Positions 2,476 to 36,614 of a DNA stretch of 36,881 nucleotides are shown piece after piece (position 1 is the first letter of the stretch; the number at the start of each line of letters is the position of its first letter). Made by a program: the position numbers and the translations under genes. This stretch comes from an uncultured virus (IMG/VR IMGVR_UViG_3300013823_000004) (lineage: Duplodnaviria; Heunggongvirae; Uroviricota; Caudoviricetes), in IMG/VR virus record IMGVR_UViG_3300013823_000004; one strand, given 5' to 3'. The notes beneath the pieces were generated by a model. The model was not told where the DNA came from. It saw only the letters and a program-made list of their open reading frames with translations, and ran no database searches.

Positions 2476-5400
2476 TTACTTGATGTAGGTGAATCCGCTG
2501 GTGTCGTTCCATGGCACCGGGTCGTTCAAGGTGGCGAGGTAGTCCGTCAGGTCGTCAACGGCGGCCTTGTATGCGTCGAACTGTTCCGTCGCCTCGGACA
2601 GCTGCGCCTCGGCCTCGATCCCCGGCAGCTCGTTGAGCAGTGCCTGGTAGTCCCGGATCAGCTGCGGCTTCTCGTCGGCCGAGATGATCGAGTCCGACAG
2701 AATCGTGTTGATTCGCTCCTGCGCCGCAGCCACCGCCGCCTGCCTGGCTGCCCGCTCTGCATCGATCTGCTGCTGACGCTGCAGGGCTTCGGCAGCGATC
2801 TGGTCGGCACGGTCAGACGCTTCCTTGGCATCCCCCTCGAATCGCAGCCGGTTGGCCTCATCGATCTGGCGCTGCAGCTCGATCAGCTTCTCGGTCGTAC
2901 CCTCGGGGTCCAGGTCATCGATGATCTCGCCCAGGTTGGGGCCGAACGTCCTTGTCACCGTGCGCATGCCCTCGGACAGCTGCCCGGCCGTGTTGCGCGA
3001 TCGACATGCGATGGTCCACTCGCCTGCCGCCGGGAGCACGCTCTCGAACGGCGCCGTGTAATACCCCGACTCCCCCAGCGGGGTCATCGTGTTCCAATCC
3101 GGCACCGGGGCATTGCCGGCCGTGTAGCGGATCTCCACGCCCGCGAAGTCCGGCGAGCGCATCGTGTCCGCCAGCCAGCCCCAGGTGTATACGCGGACGC
3201 CACCACTACGCTCGACCACGTCGAACAGATCCACCAGCACTGGAGGGAGCCCAGCCCCCCCGGTGGTGTAGACCGCCTGCACTGCAACGCCGGCCTCGCC
3301 ATCGGGCGAGAACGGCCGCACGACGATGGTGTACGTGCCTGGCTCGTTGATGCGCCAGGTCGCCGTCCGTGTCACCGTCTGAGCCACGTCCTGCAGCTCG
3401 CCGCCGGCGCCGGCCGCCCGAACCACCGTTGCCCCCACAGGCCCGGTCACGTCGAACGTGGCCGTCAGCTCGGTGAATGTGGTGTTGCCCTGGACGATCT
3501 GGGCCTCGCTGATCCGGAGGTTGCTGGCCACCGGCCGGGTCTGCAGGAGCGATTGATTCGGCGCCGGGATGTAGTGCCCGGTGAGCACGTAGTCCCAGAA
3601 CTCCGGCCCCTCCGGCACAACCCGCACCGCGGCGCCCTTCAAGTCTGGCTCCGGCTCGATGCTGGTCACGCGCACCCGATAGCCCGGCGTCTGCCGGAAG
3701 TCGTAGACCCAGATGGTGTCGTGGGCCGGGTTGTCCGGATCGGCCCCGGGGATCGCGGCATCTGCCGGCCACGGATCGGCCAGCGTGATGCTGTTGCTCG
3801 TGCCGCTGAACGGCTGCACGCGCAGCACCCGGTACACCCGCTCGCCGGGGATGCGCAGCCCGATGTACGCGTTGCCGGCCGCCGGCGCCGGTACGGGCTC
3901 GTCCAGTAGCAGCGTCATCGCGCCGACGGTACCGCTGGCGCCCTGGACACGCCCGCCGTAGCCCCACTGCGTGAGGTCGTGCTGCAGGGCCAGCAGCGAC
4001 AGCCGCTGGTAGCTCAGGTGCTCGATGTCCGTGCTGTAGCCGATGTCCTTGTACTGGTACAGGTGCTGGGCCAGATGCCAGCGCGCGGCTCGGGCCGCGT
4101 GCTGCTCCGTGCTCACGCCCTCCCCTGACACCTGGGCCGGGTTGAGCATGATGTCCACACCCGGCGCCGGCACCCGCAGGGTCTTGGCCTGCCAGTCGGT
4201 CGAGTCGATGTACGTGTACTCGATGCCGTCCGCGGCGTTCGCCAGCGTGTAGTCGACCTGGAACGTGCCCTTCTTGATCGTCGGCATGGCGACGACGCCG
4301 GACAGCGGCTGTTCCTGCGCTGCCCAGACCACGCCCAGCCGCCCACCGGCCCAGGTGATCTCGCCGAAGCCCGCGCGCGCGATGGCGGCCAGCACGTCGG
4401 TGTGGCTGCGCGCCTCCTTCACGTAGAAATCGTAGGTGTAGCCGTTGGCGGCGCAGTGCAGGCCGAACGCCTTCCACGACTCGATGTCGATCTGAGCGTC
4501 CGCCAGGGCCATGCCCGCCAGCAGGCGCGATCCGGCCCAGATGCCGCGCGCGTACGCCAGGCACTGCGCGCCCGGGTTGCTGCTTTCCTTGGTGACCCAG
4601 CCGGTGCCGCTCCACTCCGGAATCGGCGCCGCGAAGGCGACGCCCCGCAGCTCGTCCGGCGAGCCATTGAGCTGGCCGGTGGCCTTGATCCGCACGCCGC
4701 TGCGCGCGATTCCGGTGTAGTCGGCGTCATCCGCCTGCACCGATGTGAGCTGGGTCCACTGGAAGTCGTTCTTCTGGGTGTTCTTGCCCTCGTAGTTGCC
4801 CTGGCCCAGCATGCGCACGCGCACGTCGTACTGCCCGCGCGCGACATCCCGGGCCAGGGTGGCGCGGCGCACATCGAATCGGTCGGAGCGGAACGTCTGC
4901 GACGCCAGCGGCTGCCAGTTCGTCGTGCCCACCGGGCGGTACTGCGCTTCGACGGTCTCCGAGACGTAGTAGCTCTTGCCGCTGGTGCCGGTGCCGCCGA
5001 GGACGTATTCCAGGTTGATCTGGATGCGCACCGTGTCGGCGCTGGTGGTGCGCTCTACCCACGCCTTGTCCTTGGTCAACTCCGCGCCGTCGATGGTGTC
5101 GGCGTTGCTGTACAGCGGGATGGTCTGCTCCGGCATCTGGCTGTAGCCAGCGTGGTAGACCTGCACGCCGTCGTAGTTCGACAGGGGCGTGTCGCCGTTG
5201 TACAGGGCCTCGATGCGGCCCACGTTGATGCCGGCCGACAGCAGCAGGCCGAGGAATTGATCGTTGCCCTCGTACCAGGTGTATGGCTTGCTCAGCAGGT
5301 CCGGGGTGATCTGCACCCGGCCGAACAGCAACGGGTACGGCTCGTATAGCCGCAGCTGGTTGCGCGCGCCGCTGATCGAATGCACCGGGTCTTGCTGCCG

Positions 5401-34538: not shown

Positions 34539-35060
34539 ATGCTGGCTGATACCCCGCCGGTGCTGGACCCGTGCTGCGGCGGACGGATGATGTGGTTCGA
34601 CCCCAGCGACCAGCGCTGCCTGTTCGGCGACCGGCGGAACGAGACGCTCATCGTTACCGACCGGACGCACCGCGAGGACGGCACCCGCGCCGTGCACGTT
34701 CGCCCGGACGCGCTGCTGGACTTCCGCGCCCTGCCGTTCGCTGACAACTCGTTCCCGCTGGTGGTGTTCGATCCGCCGCACCTGGTGCGCGCCGGCCGGC
34801 ATTCCTGGCTGGCCGCCAAGTACGGCCGCCTCGGCGCCAACTGGCGCGACGATCTGCGCGCCGGCTTCGCTGAGTGCTTCCGCGTGCTGCGCCCAGAGGG
34901 TGTGCTGATTTTCAAATGGTCCGAGGTGCAGGTGGCCACGCGCGACGTGCTGGCCCTGACGCCGCACAAGCCGCTGTTCGGGCATCCGTCGGGCAAGCGC
35001 GCCGGCACGCACTGGATCACCTTCATCAAGCTGGCGGACAGCCAACAGGGGGTGAGGTGA
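34539..35060 (+). CDS. Small SAM-dependent amino (N6-A/N4-C) DNA methyltransferase
   Basis: LDPCCG.RMMWFD motif I, VVFDPPH catalytic motif, ECFRVLRP.G.LIFKW. Confidence 0.85.
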   Translation: MLADTPPVLDPCCGGRMMWFDPSDQRCLFGDRRNETLIVTDRTHREDGTRAVHVRPDALLDFRALPFADNSFPLVVFDPPHLVRAGRHSWLAAKYGRLGANWRDDLRAGFAECFRVLRPEGVLIFKWSEVQVATRDVLALTPHKPLFGHPSGKRAGTHWITFIKLADSQQGVR

Positions 35061-35266
35061 TGGCCCGGTACTTCATCAACGACACCGAGGTGTCGCGCGA
35101 CGAGGCGTTCTATGCATGGCGCTTCTCGCAGACCTACCGTCAGGCGCGGCACAAAAACGTCATCTGGTACAACGCGCATTGCGGCCAGGCTGCAGCGCTG
35201 AACCATCTGCGCGAGGCAGGCGTCAGGATCGAAGCGGACAGCCCGCAGGAGGCGAGCGATGCGTGA
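35060..35266 (+). CDS. Hypothetical protein (68 aa)
   Basis: GAGG RBS; TGATG coupling; overlaps the next start. Confidence 0.7.
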   Translation: MARYFINDTEVSRDEAFYAWRFSQTYRQARHKNVIWYNAHCGQAAALNHLREAGVRIEADSPQEASDA

Positions 35267-36614
35267 GCCGATCCGCTACCTGTCCCTGTTCTCCGGTATG
35301 GAGGCTGCGCATCTGGCCTGGGCGCCGCTGGGCTGGGAGTGCGTCGCCGTCGCCGAGATCGAACCAGCGGCCTGCGCACTGCTGGCGCACCGGCTGCCGC
35401 ATGTCCCGAACCTGGGCAGCGTCACCGACATCACCGCCGAGAAGATCGCGGCGCTCGGACACATCGACGTCGTGATCGGCGGCAGCCCGTGCCAAGACCT
35501 GTCGGTCGCCGGCAAGCGCGCCGGGCTGGCTGGAGCGCGCTCTGGCCTGTTCCATGAACAACTGAGGATCTTCAATGCAGCAAGGACTCTTTGCGGCGCT
35601 CGCTGGCTCGTGTGGGAGAACGTCCCCGGCGCCTTCAGCATCAACCAGGGACGAGACTTTGCTGTCGTGGTTGGCGCGCTCGCAGGATGCGAGCTCAATG
35701 TCCCGCCGGACGGCTGGGGGAGCGAGGGCGTGGCGCTGGGCGACAACGGGCTCGTCGAATGGAGCGTGCTTGACGCGCAGTGGTTCGGAGTGGCGCAGCG
35801 GCGCCGTCGCGTGTTCGCTGTCCTCGATACTGGAGACTGGGCCGGTAGACCCCCGGTACTACTTGAGCCCGACAGCCTGCGCGGGGATTCTGCGCCGCGC
35901 CGAGAAGCGGGGGAAGGTATTACCGGAACCCTTAGCGCTCGCACTTCAGGCGGTGGCGGACTCGGCACGGACTTCGACATCCAAGGCGGCTTAGTTCCTG
36001 ACGTTGCGCCGACGCTGCTGGCCCAGGGCAATCGCACTGGCGGGGATCGCCCGCCAGGTACCTCTGTGGACACATGCGAGTCGCTGATACCTGAAGTCGC
36101 TCACACCCTCCGCGTAGATGGCTTCGACGCCAGCGAAGACGGCACAGGACGGGGTACGCCGCTGGTGCCGGTGCTGCCGTTCGACACGACGCAGATCACA
36201 TCGGCGACCAATGGGAGCAGCCCCAAGCTGGGCGATCCATGCCATCCGCTTTGCGCTGGCGCGCATGCGCCTGCTATCGCATTCGACTGCAAGGCCAGCG
36301 GCCAGGCTGGCTTTGGCGTTGGCGACATCGCCAGCACGATGCGCAGCATGGACCATGCCGACAGCCACCAGAACGGGGGCGGCCACTTGGCAGTGCAGCA
36401 AGGCATGCAGGTCCGCCGCCTCACCCCGCGCGAGTGCGAGCGGCTGCAGGGCGCCCCCGACGACTGGACGCTGGTGCCGAACGTCAAGGGCAAGCCCATG
36501 GCCGACGGCCCGCGCTACAGGATGCTGGGCAACAGCTTCGCGGTCCCGGTGATCCGCTGGATCGGTCAGCGCATCCAGATCGCCCATACCTGGCTGCTGA
36601 GGGCTGCAGCATGA
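35259..36614 (+). CDS. C5-cytosine DNA methyltransferase
   Basis: Motifs I (SLFSG), IV (GGSPCQD), VI (WENVPG), VIII (QRRRRVF), IX (RRLTPRECERLQG), X (RY.MLGNS). Confidence 0.95.
   Translation: MREPIRYLSLFSGMEAAHLAWAPLGWECVAVAEIEPAACALLAHRLPHVPNLGSVTDITAEKIAALGHIDVVIGGSPCQDLSVAGKRAGLAGARSGLFHEQLRIFNAARTLCGARWLVWENVPGAFSINQGRDFAVVVGALAGCELNVPPDGWGSEGVALGDNGLVEWSVLDAQWFGVAQRRRRVFAVLDTGDWAGRPPVLLEPDSLRGDSAPRREAGEGITGTLSARTSGGGGLGTDFDIQGGLVPDVAPTLLAQGNRTGGDRPPGTSVDTCESLIPEVAHTLRVDGFDASEDGTGRGTPLVPVLPFDTTQITSATNGSSPKLGDPCHPLCAGAHAPAIAFDCKASGQAGFGVGDIASTMRSMDHADSHQNGGGHLAVQQGMQVRRLTPRECERLQGAPDDWTLVPNVKGKPMADGPRYRMLGNSFAVPVIRWIGQRIQIAHTWLLRAAA
35575..35994 (+). CDS. Nested alternative-frame ORF, putative methyltransferase beta-like subunit
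   Basis: GAGGA RBS 6 nt before ATG; EW.S....CSLSSILETG.V..RYYLSP.ACAGILRRAEKRGK.LP. Confidence 0.65.
   Translation: MQQGLFAALAGSCGRTSPAPSASTRDETLLSWLARSQDASSMSRRTAGGARAWRWATTGSSNGACLTRSGSEWRSGAVACSLSSILETGPVDPRYYLSPTACAGILRRAEKRGKVLPEPLALALQAVADSARTSTSKAA

Follow-up and report, generated by a model that had tools for sequence, protein, structure and literature searches.

The window analyzed here, a stretch of 36,881 nucleotides from an uncultured virus of the Caudoviricetes (IMG/VR record IMGVR_UViG_3300013823_000004), contains close to its end a gene for a C5 cytosine methyltransferase, inside which a second open reading frame (ORF) is nested. Probably, the two chains of a C5 cytosine methyltransferase are specified here by the same DNA segment. 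The main, alpha-like ORF (35259-36614, + strand) codes for 451 amino acids; motifs I-VIII, the target-recognition region and motifs IX-X all lie in its one frame. The nested, beta-like ORF (35575-35994, + strand; ATG start, 139 codons and a TAG stop) lies wholly within it at an offset of +1 and spans main-frame codons 106-245. Judging by comparison with its relatives, the nested ORF is a real, selected gene and not a chance ORF. We infer that its product is made and binds the main chain, and its conservation as well as the published work on the E. coli enzyme M.EcoHK31I suggest that it is needed for methylation.

The main ORF matches the Pfam family PF00145 (C-5 cytosine-specific DNA methylase) in two stretches with 148.3 bits (E 4.6e-43; curated cut-off 22) and the PHROGs family phrog_116 with E 1.5e-78. 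In the main-chain alignment, residues P77 C78 Q79, E120 N121 V122 and Q180 R181 R182 R184 are invariant (catalytic PCQ, ENV and QxRxR). Motif VI (ENV, residues 120-122; 35616-35624, + strand) is located inside the extent of the nested ORF, and the DNA of motif VIII (QRRRR, residues 180-184; 35796-35810, + strand) also codes for nested residues at the beginning of a conserved block described below. Motif IX (VRRLTPRECERLQG, residues 385-398; 36411-36452, + strand) and the core of motif X (GNS, residues 424-426; 36528-36536, + strand) were identified in the alignment, and the main frame holds all ten canonical motifs. This agrees with a preliminary description of the sequence, which had placed motifs IX and X in the main frame and had named this as the difference to M.EcoHK31I, whose beta chain carries motif IX instead.

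The preliminary description had also reported a 139-codon +1 ORF with its own GAGGA, wholly inside the methyltransferase gene over motifs VI-VIII, and every checkable detail of this proved to be correct. The Shine-Dalgarno-like GAGGA (35564-35568, + strand) is located six bases before the nested ATG, its AGG being an arginine codon of the main frame, and an in-frame TGA stop is found upstream of the nested ORF at 35563-35565. The peptide quoted for the ORF, CSLSSILETGPVDPRYYLSPTACAGILRRAEKRGKVLP, is present in the translation. The N-terminal part of the nested protein (residues 1-76; 35575-35802, + strand), in the following termed the N-part, is overprinted on main-frame motifs VI-VIII. It is followed by a helical conserved block (residues 77-128, AVACSLSSILE...YYLS...ACAGILRRAEKRGKVLPEPLALALQAVA; 35803-35958, + strand) with invariant columns in two alignments; motif VIII is encoded by the DNA of the nested residues just before the block and of its first residues. 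In frame 0, the DNA of the block is read as the stretch after motif VIII (about residues 186-235, ...PPVLLEPDSLRGDSAPRREAGEG...; 35814-35963, + strand). The nested ORF ends 11 codons past the block and before main-frame motif IX.

Database searches with the nested protein alone yielded few leads. No match to PF00145 was found in Pfam, where a chance-level row to HTH_psq (E 0.12) was returned, and the search against PDB sequences gave a chance-level row to uL4 (E 0.028). In PHROGs a single weak match was obtained (phrog_16143, 'DNA methyltransferase', E 2.6e-4). The nearest clusters in the ESM Atlas are unnamed and mostly viral ('hypothetical protein') and provide no functional lead. Due to the G + C content of the region (67%), an open alternative frame by itself means little, and long spurious ORFs are plentiful in the window.

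A tblastn search of 50,697 phage records with the 139 nested residues resulted in matches in 136 records, and all 40 of the 40 matches listed fall under methyltransferase genes or under unnamed genes at that place. In the five phage records checked first, whose hosts are Caulobacter, Sinorhizobium, Vibrio, Mycobacterium and Streptococcus, the match is the +1 frame of an annotated methyltransferase coding sequence, and this frame is open for 135-165 codons in each of them, at gene G + C contents of 39 to 63%. When IMG/VR was scanned with aligned nested proteins, at least 587 stretches were confirmed, of which 80 were kept. Together with eight phage loci (L001-L008) and the window, these 80 loci (L009-L088) form a set of 89 genes, in which the frames were determined by local tblastn. 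Relative to motifs I-VIII, the block lies in the +1 frame in 87 of the 89 genes, the remaining two (L007 and L085) having a broken N-terminal half. In 82 of the 87 loci that reach motifs IX-X, the block is also +1 to these motifs, as in the window (type A). It is in frame with IX-X in three loci (L009, L041 and L080), among which only L080 has a single +1 ORF of 310 codons running through IX-X (type B). Motifs IX-X are in the third frame in two loci (L004 and L070), and in two further loci the contig ended before them. Homologous genes with stops in this frame, which the preliminary description had named as evidence against the nested gene, are the exception: 86 of the 89 genes keep the +1 frame open over 79 codons or more upstream of the block, with L007, L072 and L019 as exceptions (L019 is cut by the end of its contig). 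The openness upstream of the block ranges from 79 to 181 codons, whereas the +2 frame at this position mostly stays open for just 30 codons.

Two of the phage loci show deviating structures. In Mycobacterium phage NihilNomen (L004, 1071-2188) the enzyme appears to be split into three, namely gp123 with motifs I-VIII (232 amino acids), a +1 ORF of about 157 codons that bears the block and lacks an annotation, and gp124 with IX-X in the third frame. In the partial genome of Curvibacter phage PCA1 (L007, 920-2330) a frame break lies between motifs VI and VIII and the annotated 'DNA methyltransferase' starts with nested-frame sequence, which points either to an error in the sequencing or to a gene that is broken.

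Selection on the +1 frame was measured in a codon alignment of the 75 type A genes with an intact main frame between motifs I and X. As score, the identity of fourfold-degenerate third bases at same-residue columns was used for gene pairs less than 60% identical. Outside the overlap (codons 1-55, the recognition region and IX-X) the third-base identity of the main frame amounts to 0.30-0.33 and is saturated, whereas it rises to 0.78-0.83 under the block; dual-frame conservation and reduced synonymous variation, which the preliminary description had named as checks, are present. Under the nested N-part (codons 106-182) the identity of 0.47-0.54 indicates moderate constraint. Between the window and its three closest relatives, codons under the block show 0.10-0.22 third-position changes each, compared to 0.40-0.62 for codons in the flanks.

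The 75 genes fall into two subfamilies according to the start of the +1 ORF, which is located about 300-316 nt into the gene in the short-start subfamily, including the window, and about 166 nt into the gene in the long-start subfamily. The long-start nested proteins have an additional conserved N-terminus, MxQLTFWSEExPA...DW...GWxGRTSP...RWxNSGM, that is overprinted on motifs II-V. Codons 56-105 serve as an internal control, since only long-start nested ORFs cover them, and their third-base identity is 0.32 in the short-start and 0.42 in the long-start genes. Pair by pair, the block lies above the flank mean in 245/247 short-start and 1005/1006 long-start pairs and the N-part in 214/255 and 826/1008, respectively. 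For codons 56-105 the corresponding numbers are 129/254 and 681/1008, and for the non-overlapped recognition region 103/220 and 279/649; as the pairs are not independent, all of these counts are descriptive and do not represent probabilities. Furthermore, in some of the genes among L009-L088 the open +1 frame reaches back to the first codons of the methyltransferase gene.

These data bear on the possibility that the nested ORF is untranslated, being open through G + C content and conserved passively by the methyltransferase motifs or by constraint at the RNA level. The gene has indeed a G + C content of 67% in a window where long spurious ORFs abound, and parts of the nested N-part (G-K/R-T-S-P opposite W-E-N-V-P) are fixed by main-frame motifs. 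However, in the Streptococcus phage Javan105 (39% G + C) the frame is open and the +1 block is kept (...LSQILMEKVPEKYYLSPRACLGILKRANARGKELP...), while the frame-0 reading of the same DNA is unrelated to that of the window. In addition, fourfold sites are 78-83% identical under the block against a saturated level of about 31% elsewhere, the constraint tracks the extent of the ORF in each subfamily, and one member of the family is a biochemically studied subunit. An untranslated ORF is therefore barely credible, and the view that the nested ORF is not due to chance is well supported by the +1 layout in 87/89 genes and the strong third-base constraint.

The nested ORF also appears to have its own start. 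The predicted nested starts of the 75 genes comprise 56 ATG, 15 TTG and 4 GTG codons, with alignable N-termini (MQLxxF...). A Shine-Dalgarno run of at least four bases precedes 67% of them, compared to 25% of control positions inside the same genes, and a run of at least five bases 33% compared to 6%. Alternatively, the +1 sequence could be reached by recoding, either by a frameshift or transcriptional slippage after motif VIII or by a return to frame 0 at the nested end, leading to fused products. A few database proteins do join frame-0 motifs to the +1 block (e.g., P0101, P0129, P0144, P0148 and P0172), but most of the joined proteins have no in-frame motif VIII and are encoded on short contigs, which is what would be expected from errors in assembly or from broken genes. 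A slippery XXXYYYZ heptamer in phase near the junction of motif VIII and block was found in only 1 of the 75 genes, a homopolymer run near this junction in none of the 75, and a slippery heptamer near the nested stop in 1 of the 75. Recoding would moreover leave unexplained that the +1 frame is kept open for 79-181 codons upstream of the block and that the nested N-terminus is conserved, with Shine-Dalgarno runs enriched before it. We consider recoding very improbable. As slippery heptamers and homopolymer runs are essentially absent, independent initiation seems to be the best reading for the nested ORF.

The preliminary description had pointed to a likeness to the beta chain of M.EcoHK31I. 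According to the account in PMC2836561, this E. coli enzyme (YGGCCR) needs an alpha and a beta chain, the latter being coded wholly within the alpha gene in another frame; the alpha chain comprises motifs I-VIII, X and the recognition domain, and the beta chain motif IX. N-terminal deletions of beta are described there, with reference to Fung et al. 2006, to weaken the alpha-beta association progressively, and with tethered chains the activity holds up to a beta deletion of 65-67 residues and falls by 70 (PMC2836561). The beta truncation primers from the supplement of PMC2836561 were read as codons, which yielded pieces of the beta chain with RWSNSGM and LSQVLET. In the primer-derived beta chain, LSQVLE is located at residues 65-70, and RWSNSGM and LSQVLE are the most typical motifs of long-start nested proteins. 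The drop of activity at beta deletions of 65-70 residues thus falls, by the primers, exactly where the block begins. The beta chain is reportedly known from experiments by Lee, Kam and Shaw in 1995.

One published primer of 31 bases matches exactly in 80 of 5,426 complete E. coli genomes, always in the chromosome, and no match was found in plasmid records. The E. coli chromosomal locus recovered with this primer (L089), which is of the M.EcoHK31I type, contains a 309-amino-acid alpha gene, 'DNA cytosine methyltransferase' (2514-3443), and a convergent 'NotI family' endonuclease gene. It also contains an unannotated +1 ORF of 176 codons (2824-3354) that starts with MQNSS at alpha codon 104 and codes for an N-part, the block (...CTLSQVLET...INRAKERGQMLPEPL...) and then motif IX. 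The locus fits the remaining primers as well, apart from one residue. In RefSeq only the 309-amino-acid alpha chain is annotated there and the beta ORF is omitted. By BLASTP, the nested protein of the window matches the L089 +1 ORF with E 2e-11 and 35% identity over 74 residues (nested residues 54-125), which supports the supposed likeness. To the L089 alpha chain, the window main chain shows 36% identity over its residues 9-208 (E 3e-29), and in the motif X region the identity is 40%. On this basis, the nested chain of the window is regarded as a homologue of the M.EcoHK31I-type beta chain, without motif IX.

Both systems share the +1 nesting in the alpha gene, with starts at alpha codon 104 in L089 and main codon 106 in the window. 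Both nested ORFs begin with MQ, the beta N-part and block as well as the alpha core are homologous, and in both loci the DNA of motif VIII passes straight into that of the block. They differ in the course of the downstream motifs. The 176-residue +1 ORF of L089 goes on to carry motif IX (VRRMLPSEYERLQGFPENW) and the L089 alpha chain lacks it and resumes with motif X, whereas in the window IX and X stay in the main frame together with a recognition region that is much longer. The surroundings are different, too: L089 adjoins a restriction endonuclease gene, whereas the window gene is located in a prophage between a second DNA methyltransferase gene (phrog_954) and an excisionase-like gene. Since motif IX is in the main frame and the nested ORF ends before it, the window gene is a variant and not a plain member of the M.EcoHK31I type.

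For structure prediction, the nested chain was folded alone with 48 sequences and in complex with the main chain, each chain being given its own alignment. Alone, it reached a mean predicted local distance difference test (pLDDT) of 62.7, with the first 80 residues unconfident and a helical C-terminal block (pLDDT 86-97 over about residues 85-135; helices 82-88, 99-112 and 118-134). For the complex, an interaction prediction score from aligned errors (ipSAE) of 0.72 was obtained (0.71, 0.72 and 0.74 in the individual runs), whereas the best of three controls reached 0.00; the pLDDT of the partner was at least 59, and the runs agreed in at least 56% of the contacts. Of 157 solved complexes, 116 attained the ipSAE mark used, compared to 2 of 215 mismatched pairs; these counts hold only roughly for this model due to the custom alignments. 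The best-defined contact of the nested chain in the model is main-frame motif IX: nested residues 95-97 (YYL) meet the VRRLT strand of this motif (main residues 385-389) and main E392 meets nested residues 85-87 (ILE), each with an expected error of 0.7-1.0 A. Nested residues 61-75 pair with main residues 153-159, 65-69 being among the best-defined contacts, and main residues 194-215, the frame-0 reading of the block DNA, touch the nested chain. Searches of PDB sequences turned up no two-chain C5 methyltransferase among solved structures, so that the score of the complex model seems unlikely to derive from a structure known to the predictor. Binding of the nested chain to the main chain, at a site beside motif IX, is supported by the model. 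Co-folding had been proposed in the preliminary description, and the modelled binding, together with the conserved coding ORF and the beta homology, argues for the probable two-chain enzyme put forward there.

A mechanism that would accommodate these results can be outlined as follows. The main frame would provide the 451-residue chain with motifs I-VIII, the target-recognition region and IX-X, and the DNA just past motif VIII would code in frame 0 only for a poorly constrained connecting stretch. From its own GAGGA and the ATG at 35575, the +1 frame would be translated into the 139-residue chain, whose helical block (about residues 77-128) would pack on motif IX and on the main-chain stretch after motif VIII and help to build the small, DNA-recognition side of the enzyme. 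The nested N-part would run along main-chain residues of about 138-179 and hold both chains together. According to the model, the nested chain most likely completes and stabilises the recognition side as a separate chain.

A different role is conceivable, in which the nested protein is made and selected as a regulator, as a switch of timing or activity or as a helper in assembly, and the main chain is active alone. This would be consistent with the ten canonical motifs of the main frame and with the N-part, which is predicted to be largely disordered alone, and the predicted binding suits a regulator as well as a subunit. However, homology links the nested protein to the M.EcoHK31I-type beta chain, whose requirement for activity is reported in PMC2836561, and the tightest conservation of the nested protein is found in the block that contacts motif IX. 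Among the top 150 cluster representatives of the nested family (described below), 34 fuse nested-type sequence in frame to motifs IX and/or X, and permuted forms fuse it to the whole enzyme; due to these fusions, the nested sequence behaves as a structural part and not as a regulator. A purely regulatory function is regarded as unlikely, and nothing in the analysis speaks for the 'activity switch' that had been suggested in the preliminary description.

Several points weigh against the interpretation as a two-chain enzyme. The window main chain already has motif IX, unlike M.EcoHK31I alpha, and may be active on its own. The 80 metagenomic loci are the best matches to the window's own nested protein, which favours look-alikes, and RNA-level signals could in principle be the source of the synonymous constraint, although its extent follows the ORF. 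On the structural side, 54 of the 139 residues of the nested chain folded alone have a pLDDT below 50, co-variation in the chosen alignments could have helped the complex model, and the exact structural role proposed for the block comes from one model. The nested-family profile gave only hits with E > 0.9 against the PDB and detected no solved relative of the block, and a Foldseek search with the nested model alone returned no row at E <= 0.001. For the model of the fused relative P0124, VIA-align gave Z <= 3.8 and nothing clear for the block. Finally, the preliminary description had equated the block with the 'L..ILE...KYYLS' segment that follows motif VIII in single-chain enzymes, which could not be confirmed: against the post-VIII segment of E. 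coli Dcm, the only one compared directly, hhalign gave a probability of 0.3% and a hidden Markov model (HMM) ranked it 596 of 3001 against shuffles.

The pattern likeness of the block to the Dcm segment that is visible by eye is not above chance by these hhalign and HMM tests. With the P0124 model (pLDDT 62.8), Foldseek detected C5 methyltransferases only over the IX-X end (46-57 columns, E >= 0.4), where M.HhaI and DNMT3 chains match weakly by fold.

With the profile of the nested family, 4,999 cluster representatives were detected at E <= 0.001, and 3,887 of these also pass <= 1e-10. The top 150 were sorted by regular expressions into 95 with the block followed by a stop as in the window, the 34 that continue in frame into IX and/or X, one with motifs I-VI upstream in frame and 20 that were left unclassified by the patterns; these shares are biased, because gene callers often drop ORFs that lie within longer ones. 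The parts follow one another in every layout as block, recognition region, IX and X, and the block is therefore located topologically where single-chain enzymes have their post-VIII segment.

Circularly permuted single chains were observed in P0169-P0171 and P0173, in which the nested-type N-part and block are followed by the recognition region, IX, X and then motifs I and II, where the contig end cuts the sequence. P0176 (1393 amino acids) is a permuted C5 methyltransferase with Hint/intein Pfam domains and includes the block (...LSDILE...GILRRAEKRGKVLPEPL) in its single chain, at a great distance downstream of both motif VIII and a frame-0-type '...IVFE...' stretch, and for this reason its block is not overlapped.

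From these layouts a broader reading arises, to which we give slightly less than an even chance: the out-of-frame pair could be the standard design of a very large family of phage methyltransferases, in which the one constant is that the block cannot share a chain with motif VIII, because both share their DNA, and in which small frame changes moved the downstream modules between the chains. If this applies, four layouts would arise, with all downstream modules on the main chain (window), with IX on beta (M.EcoHK31I), with the recognition region, IX and X on beta (type B) and as permuted single chains. The family would then represent a natural series of split points in one enzyme and be among the oldest and most widespread same-strand overlapping gene pairs of bacterial viruses.

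With respect to other C5 enzymes, M.AquI and M.EcoHK31I are treated in PMC3404938 as rare two-chain exceptions among C5 methyltransferases. M.AquI (CYCGRG) is described there as two polypeptides split in the variable region past motif VIII. Type B relatives (L080; P0122, P0131, P0137 and others) are split into motifs I-VIII on the one hand and block, recognition region, IX and X on the other, which is the motif division of M.AquI. The window differs from M.AquI, compared here by its description, as its second chain is devoid of canonical motifs and is encoded entirely within the first gene. Single-chain enzymes like E. coli Dcm and M.HhaI share the catalytic motifs and their order with the main chain but have the segment after motif VIII in the same chain. 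Outside M.EcoHK31I, no description of the nested gene was found by full-text searches of a library in which subscription journals are mostly not covered.

The M.EcoHK31I design is now seen in a prophage, with a small chain free of all ten canonical motifs, and the window gene belongs to a family of thousands of clusters with a nested gene under strong selection. As had been anticipated in the preliminary description, such a gene is easily missed by annotation: it is listed in none of the nine annotated records examined, the M.EcoHK31I-type locus of E. coli among them. Phage genes and overlapping genes would accordingly be undercounted. Recoded or 'optimised' clones of such phage methyltransferases would lose the second chain and might be inactive. 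Furthermore, the family may be a source of natural heterodimer scaffolds similar to those that served for targeted methylation in the work reported in PMC2836561.

In the window, a second DNA methyltransferase gene (34539-35060, 173 amino acids; phrog_954, E 2.4e-68) is located directly upstream. Between the two methyltransferase genes lies a 68-codon ORF (35060-35266), whose start and stop overlap the adjoining genes, and the three look like a translationally coupled trio. No restriction endonuclease was seen near the gene in the about 2-2.3 kb annotated at the end of the window, nor does a type II restriction-modification pairing appear in the annotated last 2.3 kb. The window enzyme looks like an orphan, self-protective methylase of the prophage rather than a restriction-modification partner. 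Downstream of the main ORF an excisionase/AlpA-like gene follows, and the window ends 267 bases past the methyltransferase gene.

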